NCBI RefSeq assembly: GCF_046105845.1
Contig: NZ_CP151004.1
Length of the DNA stretch: 64,000 nt
Strand: one strand, 5' to 3'
Origin: Escherichia coli
GTDB taxonomy: Bacteria > Pseudomonadota > Gammaproteobacteria > Enterobacterales > Enterobacteriaceae
Shown here: positions 21,024 through 51,467 of the stretch, piece after piece
Numbering within the stretch: the first letter of the stretch is position 1
How the letters are laid out: each line of letters begins with the position of its first letter
Notes under the pieces: model-generated
Database searches by the model: none
What the model saw: the letters and a program-made list of their open reading frames with translations, nothing else
What the model was told of the DNA's origin: nothing
Position numbers and translations under genes: made by a program

Positions 21024-22421
21024 ATGAAAATGGTCTCACGTATTACCGCGATCGGCCTGGCTGGCGTCGCGATTTGCTATTTAGGGTTATCTGGTTATGT
21101 GTGGTACCACGATAATAAACGCAGTAAACAGGCTGATGTTCAGGCATCTGCTGTCAGTGAAAATAATCAGGTTTTAGGCTTTCTCCGCGAAAAAGGATGC
21201 GACTATTGCCACACGCCTTCGGCAGAATTACCCGCCTATTATTATATTCCTGGCGCGAAACAGTTGATGGATTACGACATTAAGCTCGGATATAAATCTT
21301 TTAACCTCGAGGCCGTGCGTGCGGCTCTGCTGGCTGATAAACCTGTTTCGCAAAGCGATCTGAATAAGATTGAATGGGTGATGCAGTATGAAACTATGCC
21401 ACCAACGCGTTATACCGCGCTACACTGGGCGGGTAAGGTGAGTGATGAAGAGCGGGCGGAAATACTGGCCTGGATTGCAAAACAGCGCGCAGAATATTAC
21501 GCCAGTAATGATACTGCTCCGGAGCATCGCAATGAACCGGTGCAGCCCATCCCGCAAAAACTGCCTACCGATGCGCAAAAAGTGGCGTTGGGCTTTGCGC
21601 TGTATCACGATCCCCGTTTATCGGCTGATAGCACCATTTCATGCGCTCATTGCCATGCGTTGAATGCGGGGGGCGTCGATGGCAGAAAAACATCGATTGG
21701 TGTTGGTGGCGCAGTTGGGCCGATTAACGCGCCGACGGTATTTAACTCAGTATTTAACGTTGAGCAGTTCTGGGATGGTCGTGCGGCAACATTGCAGGAT
21801 CAGGCTGGTGGACCGCCGTTGAACCCGATTGAAATGGCGTCGAAATCCTGGGACGAAATTATTGCTAAGCTGGAAAAAGATCCGCAGCTTAAAGCTCAGT
21901 TCCTCGAAGTCTATCCGCAAGGTTTCAGTGGCGAAAATATTACTGATGCCATTGCTGAATTTGAGAAAACATTAATTACGCCGGATTCCCCATTTGATAA
22001 ATGGTTGCGTGGAGATGAGAATGCGCTGACGGCACAACAGAAAAAAGGCTATCAATTATTTAAAGATAATAAATGTGCAACTTGTCATGGTGGTATTATT
22101 CTCGGCGGACGTTCCTTCGAACCGTTGGGGCTGAAAAAAGACTTTAATTTTGGTGAAATTACGGCGGCGGATATTGGTCGTATGAATGTGACTAAAGAAG
22201 AGCGCGATAAATTGCGTCAGAAAGTACCCGGTTTACGTAACGTTGCACTAACGGCACCGTACTTCCATCGCGGTGATGTGCCGACGCTGGACGGGGCGGT
22301 GAAACTGATGTTGCGCTATCAGGTAGGCAAAGAGCTGCCGCAGGAGGATGTGGATGATATCGTAGCTTTCCTGCACAGTCTGAACGGGGTTTACACGCCG
22401 TATATGCAGGATAAACAATAA
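21024..22421 (+). CDS. yhjA: Membrane-anchored c-type cytochrome peroxidase YhjA with three CXXCH haem motifs
   Basis: 465-aa ORF with N-terminal TM anchor and motifs CDYCH, CAHCH and CATCH. Confidence 0.93.
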   Translation: MKMVSRITAIGLAGVAICYLGLSGYVWYHDNKRSKQADVQASAVSENNQVLGFLREKGCDYCHTPSAELPAYYYIPGAKQLMDYDIKLGYKSFNLEAVRAALLADKPVSQSDLNKIEWVMQYETMPPTRYTALHWAGKVSDEERAEILAWIAKQRAEYYASNDTAPEHRNEPVQPIPQKLPTDAQKVALGFALYHDPRLSADSTISCAHCHALNAGGVDGRKTSIGVGGAVGPINAPTVFNSVFNVEQFWDGRAATLQDQAGGPPLNPIEMASKSWDEIIAKLEKDPQLKAQFLEVYPQGFSGENITDAIAEFEKTLITPDSPFDKWLRGDENALTAQQKKGYQLFKDNKCATCHGGIILGGRSFEPLGLKKDFNFGEITAADIGRMNVTKEERDKLRQKVPGLRNVALTAPYFHRGDVPTLDGAVKLMLRYQVGKELPQEDVDDIVAFLHSLNGVYTPYMQDKQ

Positions 22422-25225: not shown

Positions 25226-25241
25226 AGTTTTACTCAGACAT

Positions 25242-25347
25242 AAAAAAAACCCGGCATAGGGGACCGGGAAGAGGATAGTCTGCCGTCTCCAGACTAATAA
25301 ACCGTTATAACACTCCCTGTTGGCACGGGAAACTTTGTGCTCTCAGT
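25242..25347 (-). ncRNA. gadY: GadY small RNA, cis-antisense to the gadX 3' end
   Basis: Minus-strand sequence actgagagcacaaagtttcccgtgccaacaggg...cccggtcccctatgccgggtttttttt matches GadY as recalled; terminal hairpin plus U-tract. Confidence 0.8.
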
Positions 25348-25593
25348 AAGTTAAATATAACTTTTACTGGAAATAAGATCAGCCATTTTTTTATAAACAT
25401 AAGCTATACGCTGTGCGAAAATATATTCGTGCTGCATTTACTTATTATCAATTAACTGTTATGCAAAACTACTTTGTGGATAAATTTTGGTCCTACCAAA
25501 TCTGGCAGTTTTTGCGCTAAGAAACAGTCTGGCATCATTTCATTAGTATACTGAAATTGAAATAATCGCAGTAATGAAATATAAGGGATAGTC

Positions 25594-29822: not shown

Positions 29823-30980
29823 TTATTGTTTCGATTCGGTGCTGGCGTTTTCCTGGCTGGAGGAAATTGCTCGTGCTTTGATACCCGGACGAATGCGTTG
29901 CAAACCGGAAACGATCACCCGATCGCCAGCCTGCAAGCCAGAGGTTACAACCCACTGGTCGCCGATGGCTTTGCTGGCTTCGATTTCGCGTAGCTGCACG
30001 ACATTGTCTTTATCCAGAATGAGCGCCGTTGCTTTACCCTGGGCGTTGTGGGTGACGCCTTCCTGCGGCACCAGTAATACATTCTGGCGGCTACCTTCAT
30101 CCACTAATGCCGTAACGTACATGCCAGGCAGCAAGTCACCATTTGGGTTGGGGAAAATCGCCCGTAACGTCACGGAGCCCGTGGTTTCATCCACCGTCGG
30201 GTCGGAGAATTTCAGCGTGCCGGTCTGGCTGTAACGTTTACCATTTTCCAGATTGAGCTGTACTGGCGTACTGCCCTGAACCTGTTTGATTTGCCCACTG
30301 GCGACCTCTTCTTTCATACGCAAGAAATCCTGCACCGACTGCGTGAGATCGACATAAATCGGGTCCAGACGTTGTACGGTAACCAGCGAATCTGCCTGAT
30401 TAGCGGTAACGAGTGCGCCGACGGTCACCGACGATTTCCCGCTGACGCCCGTAATCGGCGAGGTGACATTCGCGTATTGCAAATTGATCGTCGCCTGTTC
30501 AACAGCCGCTTTGGCGACGGTGACATTGGCTTCTGCTTCATTCAGCTGGGTGCGCGCGGTGTCGTAATCCTGACGGCTAACGTAGTTGGTCTTCAGCAAC
30601 GATGCCTGGCGGTTAAAGGTGATGCGGGCATTGCTGGCGGTAGAGAGCGCTTTCGCCAGCGTGCCTTTGGCGGAGTTCAGCTCGGCCTGTAAAGGTGCAG
30701 GATCAATCTGATACAGCGAATCGCCCTGGTTCACTTTATCGCCTTCGATAAAGTTGCGTTTAATGATAATACCGCCCACCTGGGGACGTATCTCGGCAAC
30801 TTCATAAGGAACGGTTCTACCGGGCAATTCGCTCAATACATTGACCGAACCGGGGGAGAGTGTGACGACACCGACCTCAGGCGTCATGGCGGCAGCGTTT
30901 TCCGCCGATTTGTCATCGCAGGCGGTGAGCATCGCGCCGCAGAATAACAACGGTATTAACAGCTTTCTTCTTCTGTTCAT
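29823..30980 (-). CDS. mdtE: RND efflux membrane fusion (periplasmic adaptor) lipoprotein MdtE
   Basis: 385-aa ORF with lipobox (LTAC); directly upstream of mdtF. Confidence 0.95.
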   Translation of the reverse strand: MNRRRKLLIPLLFCGAMLTACDDKSAENAAAMTPEVGVVTLSPGSVNVLSELPGRTVPYEVAEIRPQVGGIIIKRNFIEGDKVNQGDSLYQIDPAPLQAELNSAKGTLAKALSTASNARITFNRQASLLKTNYVSRQDYDTARTQLNEAEANVTVAKAAVEQATINLQYANVTSPITGVSGKSSVTVGALVTANQADSLVTVQRLDPIYVDLTQSVQDFLRMKEEVASGQIKQVQGSTPVQLNLENGKRYSQTGTLKFSDPTVDETTGSVTLRAIFPNPNGDLLPGMYVTALVDEGSRQNVLLVPQEGVTHNAQGKATALILDKDNVVQLREIEASKAIGDQWVVTSGLQAGDRVIVSGLQRIRPGIKARAISSSQENASTESKQ

Positions 30981-31318
30981 TTTAGTCCCTGAAAATTCTT
31001 GAGAAATAACGGTTCTTTAAATTGCGCGCGAGGAGAGATATGAGGGATTTACAGACCAGCGGCGTAGTGGGGTTGTCAGCCAGTAAGGTGGGATACAGGC
31101 ATAGTGATCGACATGGTGAGGTCAACGACAAAAAAAATGTTGCCGTTCTGCCAACAGTTCCTGCCAGCATTCGGGCAACGAAGGGTTCTACTGGTGGATA
31201 CATATACCAGGGGAATAAAGTCGTTTTAACCTCTCCTTTAGTAATCACCGGGGGTAATGAAATCAGCATCTGCATCCCTCGTCATGCCAGCCATCAATTT
31301 CAGTTGCTTATGTCCTGA

Positions 31319-31846
31319 CTAAAAATAAGATGTGATACCCAGGGTGACGATGTCGCTCATACGTCTTAGTTTCAGCTTGTACATAATGTTGAATTTCTGA
31401 ATCTTTAATGTTTGTTGCGAAATATTGAGCGTCGACGTGATATTGCTTTCATTTTTATTTTTCAGAATCAGTTGCATAATTTTGAACTGATTATGTGAAA
31501 AACATAATTGTGAATTCTTATGGGGCAAGTGTTTACCATAAGTAATCTCAAGAAGATTTTTGATACTTTCTTTGCGGCTGACAAAATAAATAGGCGCTTT
31601 AGCTTTTAGTTTACTGATGTGATAAGGTGCCAAAACAATAATTCTCTCGGCATCTAATTTCTCCAGAAATTTAATCGCTTCTTCATCAAGGATATGATTG
31701 TGATAGGTATCAATGATAACCTTGAAGGGTTTATTACCTACTTTTTTGATCTCTGACAGGGAATTGATTTTTATCATTTCGTGATTATCTTTCAACTGCC
31801 AAAAGCCCTGTAAAAGAAAAGAATCTTTCGTCATGAGAAAAATCAT
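31319..31846 (-). CDS. gadE: LuxR-family acid-resistance master regulator GadE
   Basis: 175-aa sequence from internal Met (MIFLMTKDSFLLQGFWQL...); the ORF extends 26 codons upstream; very AT-rich. Confidence 0.92.
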   Translation of the reverse strand: MIFLMTKDSFLLQGFWQLKDNHEMIKINSLSEIKKVGNKPFKVIIDTYHNHILDEEAIKFLEKLDAERIIVLAPYHISKLKAKAPIYFVSRKESIKNLLEITYGKHLPHKNSQLCFSHNQFKIMQLILKNKNESNITSTLNISQQTLKIQKFNIMYKLKLRRMSDIVTLGITSYF

Positions 31847-32644
31847 AACTTGCTCCTTAGCCGTTATCGTTTCGAACATGTCATCCTTTTCATTATTTAC
31901 ATCCTTGTCCGAATCGTTGTTCAATATAGTAAACGCCTATAAGAACTTTGCCCTTCGTGAACTAATACGTCTATTAACACTAATCAATGCTTCAGATTTA
32001 TCCATCACGCACTCCATATATTGATCCTAAGTAAAATTCCTGGTTGTTATCAGTTTGTAAACAGCAAACAAAAACTTAACGTTTGCGGATTACTGCCCAA
32101 GAATAAGTTATCAATAACCAGTTTGTGATCTCTGAAGAATATTACTAAAGTTAAAATGTAATCCGATTTAAATATCGAGTCTCCTTGTTTCGACTTAAGC
32201 TGGCAATTGGATTGCCAGCTTTCTTTTAACGCATTGAAATTACCTGAGTAAATAACTCATTCATGTCTTCAGGTTTTTATATAGCGTCTGGAGACACGGA
32301 TATTTATGCAATGTAATCAACGCCAGTTGCAAAAAAATGAACCCGGATTACTTATTTAACCGCCCATAGCATCAACGCTTACGGAACTCTTTGTTCACTT
32401 TCCCACAGCACTTTTAAAACATTAAACCTGACTACGGAAAATATCAGCCATGATAATGTTTGAAATGGCTAATTTGCCATGGAATGAAAAAAATTAGATG
32501 AAATTCAGTAGGTTGAAATAATCATCAGCAGGTAATTATTTCAATGATAGTGCGCAATTGATCTACAACGCTGTGTAGCGGAGAGAGTATTAATCGGATC
32601 ATAGTCACATCAAGTGACTATGATCCGGGTGACAACAGGGATAA

Positions 32645-33217
32645 TTATTGCTGCTTAACGAACAAACTGGCGAAGCTGAACAGGCTGGCGGCGCTAAATA
32701 TCAGTTCAATACCCACCAGTGTGGAAACCAAAGTTACAGACACCATCGGCGTTGCACCAAGGAATATCCATGCAATGACGATATCCAGCACACCAATAAC
32801 GAGCTGTAGCCAGCTGCCTTTCATTGAACGCTGACGATACCAACTCATCAGGCGAATAACCCCTGCAACACAGAACAAACCGGCAATAAATGCCGCAATG
32901 GCAAAAATGCCCAGCTCCGGTGCGCGGATGAAGAAATAGCCGATCAATAAATAGGCGACTGCGACGAGGAAACCGGATAATACAGGCCAGAAATTATGAC
33001 TGCGGTTGCTGAATAATCCAACAATAAGCGCTATGCCCGAGCAGATTAATAATGCACCCACTACCGTGCTTAAAATATCGCCAGAGACGAACGGGAAACT
33101 GATACACAGCAACCCGACGATAAACAGTAGCACGGCAATAAACTGGATTGCTCTGCGATGCTTTTTCAGCATCTCCAGATCAAACTTCAAAATTGTTGCC
33201 TTATCTATATATAACAT
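32645..33217 (-). CDS. hdeD: Acid-resistance membrane protein HdeD
   Basis: 190-aa ORF with about 6 TM segments, divergent from hdeAB. Confidence 0.93.
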   Translation of the reverse strand: MLYIDKATILKFDLEMLKKHRRAIQFIAVLLFIVGLLCISFPFVSGDILSTVVGALLICSGIALIVGLFSNRSHNFWPVLSGFLVAVAYLLIGYFFIRAPELGIFAIAAFIAGLFCVAGVIRLMSWYRQRSMKGSWLQLVIGVLDIVIAWIFLGATPMVSVTLVSTLVGIELIFSAASLFSFASLFVKQQ

Positions 33218-33471
33218 AGAACCACCCTATAAAATTAAGAAGAAAATCCCCTGCTATCAATCTATGCCAAAAACGCGTCTAAGAATGCAGTCGATTTAAT
33301 AAAAATTTCCTAATTACAGTATCTGATGCATCTGTAACTCATTGTATTGAAATAAAAATATCTGATTTTGATATTTTCCATCAACATGACATATACAGAA
33401 AACCAGGTTATAACCTCAGTGTCGAAATTGATTCGTGACGGCTCTTTCACTTTATAGTTGAGGATATTACG

Positions 33472-33804
33472 ATGAAAAAAGTATTAGGCGTTATTCTTGG
33501 TGGTCTGCTTCTTCTGCCAGTTGTGAGCAATGCAGCGGATGCGCAAAAAGCAGCTGATAACAAAAAACCGGTCAACTCCTGGACCTGTGAAGATTTCCTG
33601 GCTGTGGACGAATCCTTCCAGCCAACTGCAGTTGGTTTTGCTGAAGCGCTGAACAACAAAGATAAACCAGAAGATGCGGTTTTAGATGTTCAGGGTATTG
33701 CAACCGTAACCCCAGCTATCGTTCAGGCTTGTACTCAGGATAAACAAGCCAACTTTAAAGATAAAGTTAAAGGCGAGTGGGACAAAATTAAGAAAGATAT
33801 GTAA
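33472..33804 (+). CDS. hdeA: Periplasmic acid-stress chaperone HdeA
   Basis: 110-aa ORF with signal peptide (MKKVLGVILGGLLLLPVVSNA). Confidence 0.95.
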   Translation: MKKVLGVILGGLLLLPVVSNAADAQKAADNKKPVNSWTCEDFLAVDESFQPTAVGFAEALNNKDKPEDAVLDVQGIATVTPAIVQACTQDKQANFKDKVKGEWDKIKKDM

Positions 33805-33919
33805 TTCCGGGAATGCGTTACATCGTACTTCCTTGCATATTGAACAGGCCGGAATATCTTCTTTAAAAGCAGCTATTCCGCCTGTTCATATATAATCTCT
33901 ATATTGAATGGGTTACAAA

Positions 33920-34246
33920 ATGAATATTTCATCTCTCCGTAAAGCGTTTATTTTTATGGGCGCTGTAGCGGCTTTGTCACTGGTGAACGCACAATCTGCG
34001 CTGGCAGCCAATGAATCCGCTAAAGATATTACCTGCCAGGAATTTATTGATCTGAATCCAAAAGCAATGACACCGGTTGCATGGTGGATGCTGCATGAAG
34101 AGACAGTATATAAAGGTGGCGATACCGTTACTTTAAATGAAACCGATCTCACTCAAATTCCTAAAGTGATCGAATACTGCAAGAAAAACCCGCAGAAAAA
34201 TTTGTATACCTTCAAAAATCAAGCATCTAATGACTTGCCGAATTAA
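33920..34246 (+). CDS. hdeB: Periplasmic acid-stress chaperone HdeB
   Basis: 108-aa sequence from internal Met (MNISSLRKAFIFMGAVAALSLVNAQSALA...). Confidence 0.93.
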   Translation: MNISSLRKAFIFMGAVAALSLVNAQSALAANESAKDITCQEFIDLNPKAMTPVAWWMLHEETVYKGGDTVTLNETDLTQIPKVIEYCKKNPQKNLYTFKNQASNDLPN

Positions 34247-34258
34247 TGAGGTACAAGT

Positions 34259-34306
34259 AAAAAGGAGTAGCAAGTTGAGCCATCTTGCTGCTCCTTTTTG
34301 CATTTT
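34259..34306 (+). terminator. Hairpin plus T-tract after hdeB (partial terminator ahead of yhiD)
   Basis: aaaaggagtagcaag / cttgctgctccttttt stem followed by ttttgcattttt. Confidence 0.6.
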
Positions 34307-34309
34307 TAT

Positions 34310-34957
34310 ATGACAGCAGAATTTATTATACGTCTTATACTCGCAGCAATTGCCTGTGGCGCTATTGGCATGGAAAGGCAAATACGCGGCAAAGGAGCAG
34401 GGTTACGCACACATGTATTAATTGGCATGGGAAGCGCCCTGTTTATGATTGTTTCGAAATATGGTTTTGCTGACGTACTGTCTTTAGATCACGTCGGACT
34501 GGACCCCAGCCGTATTGCTGCTCAGGTGGTGACGGGCGTCGGGTTTATCGGTGCAGGTAACATTCTCGTTCGTAACCAAAATATTGTAGGTCTGACGACG
34601 GCAGCGGATATCTGGGTGACCGCCGCCATAGGTATGGTTATTGGCAGTGGTATGTACGAACTGGGTATTTATGGTTCAGTGATGACCTTGCTGGTGCTGG
34701 AAGTCTTCCATCAATTAACCTTCCGCCTGATGAACAAAAATTACCATTTACAGCTGACATTAGTGAACGGTAATACGGTATCAATGCTCGACTGGTTTAA
34801 GCAGCAAAAAATAAAAACGGATTTAGTTTCGTTGCAGGAAAATGAAGATCATGAAGTGGTCGCCATTGATATCCAGCTTCATGCCACGACGTCGATAGAA
34901 GATCTGTTGCGATTATTAAAAGGTATGGCAGGGGTGAAAGGCGTTTCAATTAGCTAA
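34310..34957 (+). CDS. yhiD: MgtC/SapB-family inner membrane protein YhiD
   Basis: 215-aa sequence from ATG (MTAEFIIRLILAAIACGAIGMERQ...); the ORF track starts at an upstream TTG. Confidence 0.9.
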   Translation: MTAEFIIRLILAAIACGAIGMERQIRGKGAGLRTHVLIGMGSALFMIVSKYGFADVLSLDHVGLDPSRIAAQVVTGVGFIGAGNILVRNQNIVGLTTAADIWVTAAIGMVIGSGMYELGIYGSVMTLLVLEVFHQLTFRLMNKNYHLQLTLVNGNTVSMLDWFKQQKIKTDLVSLQENEDHEVVAIDIQLHATTSIEDLLRLLKGMAGVKGVSIS

Positions 34958-40613: not shown

Positions 40614-40881
40614 ACATTTGCGCTTAACAAAACACGACCATATGGATAACAAAACCATAGCATTTGCAAGGGATAACGCACAGCGCTCTTCACTCCTGAT
40701 GGGGCATATCGTTTTGCCTGACAAAGAGGGCGTGCTTTTGCGTATTTGCCGAGATACCAGGCAATTTCATGGGATATAAACGCCTGTAAACTCACCCGGC
40801 GAATATTATCGCCCTGAATTTTAAATAAATTTATTTTTCGCCAGCCACCCCGGTATTAACCCAGGCAGCCAGCATTTTTTA

Positions 40882-40896
40882 TTTTCCTCATGGAGA
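40882..40896 (+). promoter_or_regulatory. U-rich/SD hairpin in the chuA leader (candidate FourU-type RNA thermometer)
   Basis: ttttcc tcat ggaga: the U-rich tract can pair with the GGAG Shine-Dalgarno just 5' of the ATG. Confidence 0.4.
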
Positions 40897-40902
40897 ATCG
40901 CT

Positions 40903-42885
40903 ATGTCACGTCCGCAATTTACCTCGTTGCGTTTGAGTTTGTTGGCTTTGGCTGTTTCTGCCACCTTGCCAACGTTTGCTTTTGCTACTGAAACCATGAC
41001 CGTTACGGCAACGGGGAATGCCCGTAGTTCCTTCGAAGCGCCTATGATGGTCAGCGTCATCGACACTTCCGCTCCTGAAAATCAAACGGCTACTTCAGCC
41101 ACCGATCTGCTGCGTCATGTTCCTGGAATTACTCTTGATGGTACCGGACGAACCAACGGTCAGGATGTAAATATGCGTGGCTATGATCATCGCGGCGTGC
41201 TGGTTCTTGTCGATGGTGTTCGCCAGGGAACGGATACCGGACACCTGAATGGTACTTTTCTTGATCCGGCGCTGATCAAGCGTGTTGAGATTGTTCGCGG
41301 ACCTTCAGCATTACTGTATGGCAGTGGCGCGCTGGGTGGGGTGATCTCCTACGATACGGTCGATGCAAAAGATTTATTGCAGGAAGGACAAAGTAGTGGT
41401 TTTCGTGTCTTTGGTACTGGCGGCACGGGGGACCATAGCCTGGGATTAGGCGCGAGCGCGTTTGGACGAACTGAAAATCTGGATGGTATTGTGGCCTGGT
41501 CCAGTCGCGATCGGGGTGATTTACGCCAGAGCAATGATGAAACCGCGCCGAATGACGAGTCCATTAATAACATGCTGGCGAAAGGGACCTGGCAAATTGA
41601 TTCAGCCCAGTCTCTGAGCGGTTTAGTGCGTTACTACAACAACGACGCGCGTGAACCAAAAAATCCGCAGACCGTTGAAGCTTCTGATAGCAGCAACCCG
41701 ATGGTTGATCGTTCAACAATTCAACGCGATGTGCAGCTTTCTTATAAACTCGCCCCGCAGGGCAACGACTGGTTAAATGCAGATGCAAAAATTTACTGGT
41801 CGGAAGTCCGTATTAATGCGCAAAACACGGGGAGTTCCGGCGAGTATCGTGAACAGATAACAAAAGGAGCCAGGCTGGAGAACCGTTCCACTCTATTTGC
41901 CGACAGTTTCGCTTCTCACTTACTGACATATGGCGGTGAGTATTATCGTCAGGAACAACATCCGGGCGGCGCGACGACGGGCTTCCCGCAAGCAAAAATC
42001 GATTTTAGCTCTGGCTGGCTACAGGATGAGATCACCTTACGCGATCTGCCGATTACCCTGCTTGGCGGAACCCGCTATGACAGTTATCGCGGTAGCAGCG
42101 ACGGCTACAAAGATGTTGATGCTGACAAATGGTCATCTCGTGCGGGGATGACTATCAACCCGACCAACTGGCTGATGTTATTTGGCTCATATGCCCAGGC
42201 ATTCCGCGCCCCGACGATGGGCGAAATGTATAACGATTCTAAGCACTTCTCGATTGGTCGCTTCTATACCAACTATTGGGTGCCAAACCCGAACTTACGT
42301 CCGGAAACTAACGAAACTCAGGAGTACGGTTTTGGGCTGCGTTTTGATGACCTGATGTTGTCCAATGATGCCCTGGAATTTAAAGCCAGCTACTTTGATA
42401 CCAAAGCGAAGGATTACATCTCCACGACCGTCGATTTCGCGGCGGCGACAACTATGTCGTATAACGTCCCGAACGCCAAAATCTGGGGTTGGGATGTGAT
42501 GACGAAATATACCACTGATCTGTTTAGCCTTGATGTGGCCTATAACCGTACCCGCGGCAAAGACACCGATACCGGCGAATATATCTCCAGTATTAACCCG
42601 GATACCGTTACCAGCACCCTGAATATTCCGATCGCTCACAGTGGCTTCTCTGTTGGGTGGGTTGGTACGTTTGCCGATCGCTCAACACATATCAGCAGCA
42701 GTTACAGCAAACAACCAGGCTATGGCGTGAATGATTTCTACGTCAGTTATCAAGGACAACAGGCGCTCAAAGGTATGACCACTACTTTGGTGTTGGGTAA
42801 CGCTTTCGACAAAGAGTACTGGTCGCCACAAGGCATCCCACAGGATGGTCGTAATGGAAAAATTTTCGTGAGTTATCAATGGTAA
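40903..42885 (+). CDS. chuA: TonB-dependent outer-membrane haem/haemoglobin receptor ChuA
   Basis: 660-aa ORF with signal peptide, TonB-box-like region (ETMTVTAT) and aromatic C-terminus ending ...VSYQW. Confidence 0.95.
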   Translation: MSRPQFTSLRLSLLALAVSATLPTFAFATETMTVTATGNARSSFEAPMMVSVIDTSAPENQTATSATDLLRHVPGITLDGTGRTNGQDVNMRGYDHRGVLVLVDGVRQGTDTGHLNGTFLDPALIKRVEIVRGPSALLYGSGALGGVISYDTVDAKDLLQEGQSSGFRVFGTGGTGDHSLGLGASAFGRTENLDGIVAWSSRDRGDLRQSNDETAPNDESINNMLAKGTWQIDSAQSLSGLVRYYNNDAREPKNPQTVEASDSSNPMVDRSTIQRDVQLSYKLAPQGNDWLNADAKIYWSEVRINAQNTGSSGEYREQITKGARLENRSTLFADSFASHLLTYGGEYYRQEQHPGGATTGFPQAKIDFSSGWLQDEITLRDLPITLLGGTRYDSYRGSSDGYKDVDADKWSSRAGMTINPTNWLMLFGSYAQAFRAPTMGEMYNDSKHFSIGRFYTNYWVPNPNLRPETNETQEYGFGLRFDDLMLSNDALEFKASYFDTKAKDYISTTVDFAAATTMSYNVPNAKIWGWDVMTKYTTDLFSLDVAYNRTRGKDTDTGEYISSINPDTVTSTLNIPIAHSGFSVGWVGTFADRSTHISSSYSKQPGYGVNDFYVSYQGQQALKGMTTTLVLGNAFDKEYWSPQGIPQDGRNGKIFVSYQW

Positions 42886-44708: not shown

Positions 44709-45275
44709 TTATTTGACCAGCTCAGGTGTTACCTGACTCACCGCATTGGTGTAGTAAGGCGCGCCCCAGCCCGGTTCCGGCCAGAATGCACCATAGCCGT
44801 AATCCCACAGGTTATAGGTGGTATTAACCACTTCTCTCAAATGCCACACCTGGATGCCCTGCATATTCACTTCGAGGAAGTTATACGGGACTTTATTGAT
44901 AAAGCCAGGTTGTTCACCCTGAATGGTACCGAGGATGGTAACAAAGTGATTACGATAGTTCACTGGATCAAGGAAGCCGCTTTGTCTGGCGAGCAGTCGG
45001 CCCTGATAGTTGGCTTCAATATCAGGCTTCGCATAGCTATCCAACGGTAATACAGCGATTTCTAACAACGTATCCGTTTTGCCATTGATAACGTTGATAA
45101 CCTTCCCACCAAAGCGCGCTTGTTGACCAACATATAACCCCGGCTGGTTATGAACAGCAACAAAACTTTTTTGAATATCAGGTTGGTTATTGCCTTTGAT
45201 ATTTTGCGGAATTGAACTACATGCGGCAAGCAAAAATGAAAGGCTGAGGATGAGTGCACCTTTTGTCATGTTCAT
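44709..45275 (-). CDS. slp: Starvation-inducible outer membrane lipoprotein Slp
   Basis: 188-aa sequence from internal Met (MNMTKGALILSLSFLLAACSS, lipobox LAAC); the ORF extends 11 codons upstream. Confidence 0.9.
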   Translation of the reverse strand: MNMTKGALILSLSFLLAACSSIPQNIKGNNQPDIQKSFVAVHNQPGLYVGQQARFGGKVINVINGKTDTLLEIAVLPLDSYAKPDIEANYQGRLLARQSGFLDPVNYRNHFVTILGTIQGEQPGFINKVPYNFLEVNMQGIQVWHLREVVNTTYNLWDYGYGAFWPEPGWGAPYYTNAVSQVTPELVK

Positions 45276-45518
45276 GTTACTATCCTTATCAACAAATATT
45301 AAAACCATAATAGATATTTCTTTATAGTTTTCATCTGATTCTGAGGCGATATGCCTGATAGTAACGTAAACCTGTCTGATGTTTATATCCCTCTGTTTAG
45401 TTTAATTCTGTTAATTTTGGGGCGTGACATGAGTATCCATCGCCCCATAAAATAGCCTTTTTTTAAAGGTACATAAAATCTATTTTATTCAATGATTATA
45501 AAGCGCTAATGTTCAATA

Positions 45519-46742
45519 TTATGGGATTATATTCTGGTAATGATTTGATAAGCGAATTCTTTTGCCAGTTGGTATTTCTATTTCCACCCCATAATTTATA
45601 GTTTTTTCATCAGGTAGCGATCTCTTTAAATAAGGTGCGCATGACATTTTTTTTGGGTTAAGCGTCTCGCGTTGAAATACTTCGAATTGATATTCAGACA
45701 TTTCTGCCCATGTTTGAATTTTATTGTATCGGGAGAGTGTCGTAAAGGCTTTAACTTGCTTATAACATTGTTTTTTGAATTCTTGCTGATATTTTAATAT
45801 GTCATTGTATGAAATATTGGTTATCCTGGCCTCTAAGAATTTAATTATTGTCGAAGCAATTTCCGCTTTTGCTCGTAAAAAGTTGTCATTAATGGTTAAT
45901 AATGTTGAAAATAAACCTTCGATTTGTTTGTCAAGATATTGTTCGTCTTTATATAATTTGGGGGTAGGGTGTTCTTTATGTGAAAAAATAGTGTCACCTA
46001 AATTTGCGTCAGTGAAATTTATATTAAGTAGATCTTCGAAATAAAACCTTGACAAGGTTAGAACGAACCCGGACAGGTTCTGTCCTGTCATATTGAAATC
46101 AATAAAGTTGGTTCCGGCAAAGACTTTCATCCTGTTTTTATTTTCACTGTGCTCAATATATAACTTCGTCATTTTTTGATACAGGTTTTGAATATCTTTT
46201 ATATTAGTCGGTAAGTCAGCTCGTTGTTCAGCAATAAAATTAGTATCTGAAAACGTGGTTTGGACACTGAATGTTATGGGTATTCCCTCTTCTACGCTAA
46301 TTTTAGTTATGATTGCCTTGTCGGGTTTAGGATTAGCGACAACAATGATTCGACATTCAGCACTTTTGTTCTTTTCGTATCTAATGTTATTAATTTGATT
46401 AAGTAGTCCCTGTGCCTGCCGCGTAAGTGGTGTCGAACTTATCGATTCAATGTTAGTAATAAGACTTACAAGTTGAGCCACAACTTTGGAGTAGTCTGCA
46501 TTTGTATATGTGGTGTTCGTGCGGCACGCATAAATTTGTGGGAGGTGTTTCCGCGCTAAATCATATTGTTCAGGGTTGTATCCTTCTCCAGAGAATGGGG
46601 AATTAATGGGTTGTTGTTCTTCCTGATTATCACAAGGCCACATCGGTGTGTCTGGTGTTTTAACATTGTCGGTATCTGTTGTGCGGTTATAAATATCGCC
46701 GTGATATGTATTTATCATACTTGGGGTAAAGTCAATTGACAT
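45519..46742 (-). CDS. yhiS: YhiS-type hypothetical protein, intact 407 aa; polar N-terminus and a pentapeptide-repeat-like tract
   Basis: ATG at 46742 with SD aagga 6 nt upstream; very AT-rich; no signal peptide or TM segment; central tract [45 protein letters not shown]. Confidence 0.8.
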
Positions 46743-50997: not shown

Positions 50998-51148
50998 ATT
51001 GCGCTCCTGATTGTTGCCGGTAGTGTCTCTCTTCGAAGCGGATAAGTCAAAAACATATATGACTTAACGAATATGTAAGTGTGGAGAAAGGTATAGATGT
51101 GAATTAAGCGTTGGGTATTCATTTGAAAGGAGGTCTGAATCAGGACGT

Positions 51149-51233
51149 AAAAAAACCGACTTTGCGTCGGTTTTTTACTTTCCAGCCCTGAGTTGGTGGC
51201 TCTGGCTGGAGTGAGAGAGCTCTTATCTAACAG
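51149..51233 (-). ncRNA. agrB: agr-type antisense sRNA repeat (probably agrB), antitoxin of dinQ
   Basis: About 85 nt between arsR and dinQ; minus-strand transcript would end at hairpin ccgacgcaaagtcgg plus U-tract; body is complementary to a dinQ leader segment (ctggccggagtgagagagttcttatctaaca at about 51632-51662); A/B assignment from recalled K-12 order. Confidence 0.5.
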
Positions 51234-51383
51234 TTCAATACTATTAGCCAGTGGCTAACATTGCAAGAATTAGCGATTTCTTCAGCTGGAGAAGGGACAG
51301 TTTGCTATACATGTTGGTGAAAGAGGATTTATATACTTTCATCGGGTCGCTGCCGTACCAAGCCTTGTCCGAATCCGGACGTA

Positions 51384-51467
51384 AAAAAACCGACTTCGCG
51401 TCGGTTTTTTACTTTCCAGCCCTGAGTTGGTGGCTCTGGTTGGAGTGAGAATGCCATCATCTAACGC
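51384..51467 (-). ncRNA. agrA: agr-type antisense sRNA repeat (probably agrA)
   Basis: Second copy of the same repeat and hairpin, 235 bp from the first. Confidence 0.5.

Follow-up and report, generated by a model that had tools for sequence, protein, structure and literature searches.

What occupies the long, AT-rich gap upstream of gadE in this E. coli chromosome, and does any part of it code for protein? In the window, which is the whole 64,000-nt stretch of DNA that was analysed, the gap between hdeD and gadE covers positions 31847-32644 and measures exactly 798 bp, with both flanking genes on the (-) strand. Its GC content is 36.0% (64% AT) against 49.8% for the whole window, which corresponds to the 2.6th percentile among all 798-bp stretches of the window; a long AT-rich gap had been described here in an earlier note made from the letters alone, and its coordinates proved exact. 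The lowest-GC 798-bp stretch of the window lies elsewhere, at about 45258-46055, and with 31.3% GC it falls below the gadE upstream region. PCN033 is the closest genome and its annotation was used to rank gap sizes; in a 40-kb annotated stretch of that genome the hdeD-gadE gap is the largest intergenic gap, followed by gaps of about 740 and 680 bp.

The gap and its K-12 counterpart

Positions 31847-32644 (-) are almost certainly the orthologue of the K-12 hdeD-gadE intergenic region, that is, the long promoter and leader of the gadE-mdtEF operon. Alignment to K-12 MG1655 (NC_000913.3, 3657568-3658365), the check that the earlier note had proposed, is colinear over 798 of 798 columns without indels and reaches 98.0% identity (782/798), and arrS as well as the published transcription starts were mapped through it. 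The flanking genes, their orientation and the 798-bp length are shared with K-12, and the sequence around the starts at -566, -324/-317, -124 and -21 is retained in the window, while 16 SNPs distinguish the two copies. The K-12 region is reportedly known as the gadE "sensory integration region" from Ma et al. 2004 and Sayed & Foster 2009.

The flanks agree with this assignment. The upstream flank, the hdeD CDS at 32645-33217 (-), matches the NCBIfam HdeD equivalog at 8.6e-91 and encodes a protein identical to K-12 HdeD. The downstream flank, the gadE CDS at 31319-31846 (-), encodes 175 aa identical in sequence to GadE of both K-12 and PCN033, and a Shine-Dalgarno sequence, AAGGAG, precedes it at 31853-31858. 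The program-made ORF listing extends gadE to an upstream TTG, but the annotated start, the ATG at 31846, is the true one. With mdtE downstream of gadE and hdeAB-yhiD divergent, the setting is the acid fitness island.

Of 5426 complete E. coli genomes, 5406 carry the region at a coverage of at least 80%, in every case on the chromosome, and its best genome matches (99.7%) are PCN033, ST70-like and O166:H15 strains. Among the matches listed from the complete E. coli genomes no CDS is annotated under the region, and K-12 and five further RefSeq genomes have none annotated within it either. The description of the gap as non-coding therefore stands as far as annotated CDSs are concerned, but does not extend to RNA genes, for an sRNA gene, arrS, sits inside it on the opposite strand. 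In comparison with other H-NS-silenced, AT-rich regions with multiple promoters in horizontally acquired islands, such as those of gadW/gadX and hdeAB in the same island, the gadE region shares the low GC content (36%), the island location and the presence of several activator-dependent promoters without a match to the sigma-70 consensus; it differs in being much longer and in carrying an embedded antisense sRNA gene. The region is already known, and its copy in the present strain reads as intact and ordinary.

Several neighbouring elements were recorded on the way. Downstream of gadE, the ES205/GadF sRNA was matched over its full length at 31130-31201 (-) (Rfam RF02754, 105 bits), corresponding to K-12 gadF (b4718). 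A PGAP "hypothetical protein", WP_001205329.1 with its variants, is called antisense and directly downstream of gadE, at 31022-31318 (+) in the window and at 21327-21605 in the compared locus L002; this call overlaps the gadF sRNA locus and is probably spurious. Other Rfam hits in the window are GadY at 25237-25350 (-), two AgrB-family antisense RNAs at 51147-51230 (-) and 51381-51464 (-), and the shuA/chuA 5' UTR thermoregulator at 40874-40905 (+). In PCN033 the acid fitness island encloses the chu heme-uptake cluster, and dinQ is annotated in the vicinity.

The island was also met in unusual forms in other assemblies. E. coli acid fitness island sequence occurs in NZ_JAUFQN010000010.1 (L009), labelled "Flavobacterium paronense", and in NZ_JARVKW010000110.1 (L010), labelled "Streptomyces sp. 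DH24"; the K-12-like copy in L009 is full of 1-nt indels, so that GadE appears only 73% identical, and contamination plus uncorrected long-read errors is the most likely origin of the island sequence in L009 and L010. In E. coli strain 3059 (NZ_CP103559.1), a blood isolate, the region breaks off at a Tn3-family transposase remnant, with only its first 232 bp left; directly behind the remnant come a glutamate decarboxylase fragment and then ccp, and from this junction it follows that gadE, mdtEF and gadWX are deleted.

Promoters, regulators and the ArrS RNA

The 798-bp gadE promoter has been described with four transcription starts and more than 10 regulators, including H-NS (Deng et al. 2013; PMC3708157). 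Relative to the gadE ATG, the starts lie at -21, -124 (T1), -324/-317 (T2) and -566 (T3); the main promoters P3, P2 and P1 give rise to the starts at -566, -324/-317 and -124, respectively, and the start at -21 is weak (PMC3708157). With position -n placed at 31846 + n of the window, these starts map to 31867 (-21), 31970 (T1), 32170/32163 (T2) and 32412 (T3). The regulators reported for gadE include H-NS, EvgA, YdeO, GadE, GadX/W, ArcA and RpoS; P1 is autoactivated by GadE, and H-NS is antagonised by ArcA at P3 and P1 (PMC3708157). The suggestion made beforehand, that this is a gadE control region with multiple promoters and H-NS silencing, matches both the K-12 annotation and that study.

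Scans of the region recovered only part of this published architecture. A sigma-70 consensus scan returned 6 sites against 6.8 in shuffled sequence, with none at the published starts; the promoters are not recognisable from sequence alone. A match of 18/20 to the GadX/GadW ChIP-exo motif (PMC4918353), ATGGCTGATATTTTCCGTAG, was found at 32432-32451 (-), where it occupies -39 to -20 relative to T3; it is the only hit of at least 80% in the region and may serve as a GadX/W site. Scans for the GAD box and the GadE ChIP-exo motif gave best scores of 13/20 and 12/15, respectively; these hits are weak and lie outside P1, and consensus matching thus gave no position for the published P1 GAD box. Hexamers of the YdeO box, as defined in PMC4222967, occur five times in the region by hexamer scan, and a perfect 10-bp inverted repeat, TTGAAATAAT-N12-ATTATTTCAA, at 32513-32544 (no strand assigned) is formed by two of these putative YdeO-box hexamers, TGAAAT/ATTTCA.

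The small RNAs that the earlier note had expected are represented by arrS, an antisense sRNA gene that is annotated inside the K-12 region (b4704, 3657985-3658054) and corresponds to 32158-32227 (+) of the window. All 70 of its 70 nt, terminator included, are identical to K-12, and the gene is nearly invariant across Escherichia species. Its intrinsic terminator, recognised by a terminator scan and as an inverted repeat at 32197-32221 (+), is composed of an 11-bp stem and a 3-nt loop followed by UUUCUUUU; the stem contains GC, and the RNA fold reaches -20.2 kcal/mol (z = -3.8). A putative promoter on the (+) strand can be read as TTGTGA at 32123-32128 and TAAAGT at 32146-32151, separated by 17 nt. 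Rfam 15 did not match arrS, either at an E-value threshold of 1 on 30500-34500 or at the gathering threshold over the whole window, and because of this its identification rests on the K-12 annotation. Compared with K-12 ArrS (b4704), the position antisense to the T3 leader and the terminator hairpin are alike, without any difference in sequence.

The position of arrS among the starts is defined by geometry. The T3 start (32412) lies upstream of the gene, the T2 starts (32170/32163) inside it and the T1 start (31970) downstream, so that ArrS is fully antisense to the T3 gadE 5' UTR and not to the T1 leader. ArrS was reportedly described by Aiso et al. in 2011 and 2014. Its role is treated in PMC6755755 and PMC6212723, and its expression is acid-induced via sigma-S and GadE (PMC6755755).

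Based on the literature, the region is a signal-integration platform. In the scheme that would apply, H-NS would silence the promoters on AT-rich DNA and activators would turn them on, the reported activators being the EvgA-YdeO cascade together with GadX and GadW. GadE would further activate its own expression from P1, and ArcA would counter H-NS at P3 and P1. The long 5' UTRs would allow post-transcriptional control, in which ArrS, encoded within the region, would pair with the T3 leader, with a dependence on RNase III suggested. The promoters, binding sites and ArrS presumably work in this strain as in K-12, to judge from the retained sequence.

Constraint across Escherichia and the hairpins of the region

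Cross-species comparison covered seven GTDB species representatives (E. albertii, E. whittamii and other non-coli Escherichia among them) and five further E. coli genomes. The gap is 720-797 bp long in all Escherichia sampled, and the order of its conserved blocks is constant. In a sliding profile of 13 Escherichia sequences, three non-coding blocks equal the flanking CDSs in conservation, and they coincide with P3, arrS/P2 and P1/leader. The P3 block at 32400-32480 (-), with the T3 start (-566, 32412) and the match to the GadX/GadW motif, has a mean column conservation of 0.94-1.00; the arrS/P2 block at 32095-32227 (-), with the T2 starts, has 0.92-0.99; and the P1/leader block at 31847-32050 (-), which holds T1 (31970), the -21 start (31867), the GGA repeats and the Shine-Dalgarno sequence, has 0.93-1.00 and is more conserved than much of the gadE CDS.

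Variation is found in the first ~165 bp past hdeD (32481-32644), in 32230-32395 and in 32055-32090. The spacer between the T3 start and arrS, at 32230-32395 (-), has a conservation of 0.66-0.89, and only E. coli and its closest clade have it in full: about 60-100 bp are missing in the other non-coli Escherichia, among them E. albertii and E. whittamii. The variable spacer (32230-32360) was considered as a repeated or mobile element, and this was rejected: it is present in a single copy per E. coli genome, without flanking repeats, and being single-copy it is not a repeated mobile element.

In the gadE leader, two copies of A(A/C)AAGGATG form a direct repeat at 31882-31891 and 31900-31909 (-), 18 nt apart, in addition to the AAGGAG of the Shine-Dalgarno sequence. 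Binding of the gadE leader by CsrA was observed in gel shifts (PMC11210196), and the GGA motifs of the leader may be the CsrA sites that those gel shifts imply. Folding of the 124-nt T1 leader gave z = -1.3, indistinguishable from shuffles.

At the other end of the region, a perfect hairpin with a 14-bp stem and a 5-nt loop occupies 32595-32627 (-), with a fold of -25 kcal/mol (z = -7.0). It lies 18 nt past the hdeD stop codon. Among 8 distinct Escherichia sequences, 93.8% of its cells are paired, compared with 24-47% when the partners are slid, and three pairs carry compensatory double changes. Because the hairpin has no U-tract, it is read as a stem-loop in preference to a canonical terminator, and it is probably the 3'-end stem-loop of hdeD. 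It could possibly act as a stabiliser of the hdeD 3' end, as an unusual terminator or as a palindromic protein site. Another near-perfect long palindrome, with a stem of about 17-20 bp, was seen at 34258-34300, between hdeB and yhiD; mir-761 was hit there spuriously on either strand, and the palindrome has the look of a hairpin within an operon or of a bidirectional one.

Coding potential, gene decay and strain alleles

Six ORFs of at least 20 aa touch the region. None has a significant Pfam match, the best E value of 0.066 being far below the curated cut-off, and an NCBIfam scan of three of the six gave no match. Five of them are broken by frameshifts or stops in non-coli Escherichia species, and the sixth, with 26 codons, MECVMDKSEALISVNRRISSRRAKFL, at 31937-32017 on the (-) strand, the same strand as gadE, is open in all 14 of 14 Escherichia sequences without a coding signature. 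The earlier assertion that no credible ORF lies in the gap is borne out by this comparison, and none of the six emerged as a conserved, expressed coding ORF.

The 26-codon ORF is the candidate for a functional translated upstream ORF, either at full length or as an internal 22-codon version from a second ATG, that could modulate gadE from the T2 and T3 leaders. Its start and stop are retained in all the Escherichia sequences, those of E. albertii and E. whittamii among them, while the other five ORFs are broken; E. coli has a GGAG 6 nt upstream of the internal ATG; and a precedent exists in the same circuit in EvgL, a leader peptide coupled to evgA (PMC11210196). The pattern of variation, however, is not that of a protein: the 16 variant states comprise 3 synonymous and 13 non-synonymous ones, as at random, where 22% synonymous would be expected, and within a 36-nt core none of the three codon positions varies at all, a sign of constraint on DNA or RNA. 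Given the observed variants, the chance of the ORF staying open is ~0.15. Furthermore, the ribosome-binding site is not conserved, as GGAG is lost in two species (GGAC in L005, GGAA in E. albertii), and the T1 start at 31970 falls within the ORF. Neither K-12 RefSeq nor the PGAP genomes annotate it, and an exact look-up of small-ORF peptides returned only two singleton, fragmentary metagenome gene calls, mislabelled as a CsgD-family regulator. Nor does any of the acid-stress Ribo-seq sORF candidates in the part of the PMC10746267 supplements covered here fall at the K-12 coordinates of the ORF. A translated function for this ORF is accordingly very improbable.

Codons for Lys, Glu, Leu and Arg abound in the ORF. 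tRNAs modified by MnmE read such codons, and why MnmE activates gadE has long gone unexplained. A leader peptide of this kind, carried only by the T2 and T3 leaders, would couple gadE expression to translation status, a scheme to which we give very little credence. We read the 26-codon ORF as kept open passively, probably through constraint that acts on the nucleotides of the P1 promoter and leader.

The long gap might also be what decay has left of a lost gene, in which case part of it would be pseudogene debris rather than regulatory DNA. The segments 32481-32644 and 32230-32395 are in fact poorly conserved and show indel variation between species. Against this, the ORFs of the region lack recognisable protein domains as described above, the variable spacer is single-copy and bears no repeat signature, the gap keeps its length and block order in all Escherichia sampled, and deletions reported in the literature reveal a contribution of the P3 region to promoter activity (PMC3708157). 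Taken with these points, decay of a gene is extremely unlikely, and the promoter and leader of gadE-mdtEF remains the preferred reading.

The earlier note had raised strain-specific differences, and another explanation builds on them: the SNPs of this strain, above all a T to C change at -143, would rewire gadE control by altering GadE autoactivation, with consequences for the acid-resistance phenotype. This SNP, at 31989 (-), lies 19 nt upstream of T1 and is C here against T in K-12. K-12, O157, B2 strains and every other Escherichia species that was sampled have the T, within a P1 block that is otherwise nearly invariant, and the C allele, searched for as an exact 41-mer, is limited to 201 of 5426 complete genomes (3.7%). 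Yet it is one change at a spacer position, outside the likely -10/-35 positions, and the C allele has become fixed in a successful lineage, one to which PCN033 and ST70-like strains belong. Of the 16 SNPs relative to K-12, none falls in arrS, in its putative promoter or in the P3 and P2 promoter cores, and the differences from K-12 other than -143 are common polymorphisms or lie in variable segments. From PCN033 the window differs at two positions only, both carrying alleles shared with K-12, and hence it has no private SNPs. The window has the majority allele at -31 and -104, whereas the K-12 alleles at these sites occur in roughly 28-33% of genomes; that the latter are laboratory mutations was ruled out, as they were found in 1503 and about 1775 of 5426 genomes, respectively. 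Rewiring of gadE control by these SNPs is therefore unlikely; -143 is the sole candidate regulatory difference of the lineage.

In conclusion, for the biology of E. coli the region matters little beyond its correct annotation, being among the most intensively studied of E. coli promoters. The annotation should list arrS instead of calling the gap empty, and the landmarks P3, P2, P1 and arrS are now placed on window coordinates. The additions made here are modest, namely the coordinate map, the cross-species constraint map, the covarying hdeD hairpin and the negative test for a coding ORF. The constrained portion amounts to ~420 bp in three blocks, with the remainder free to vary, and this division could guide the dissection of the gadE promoter.
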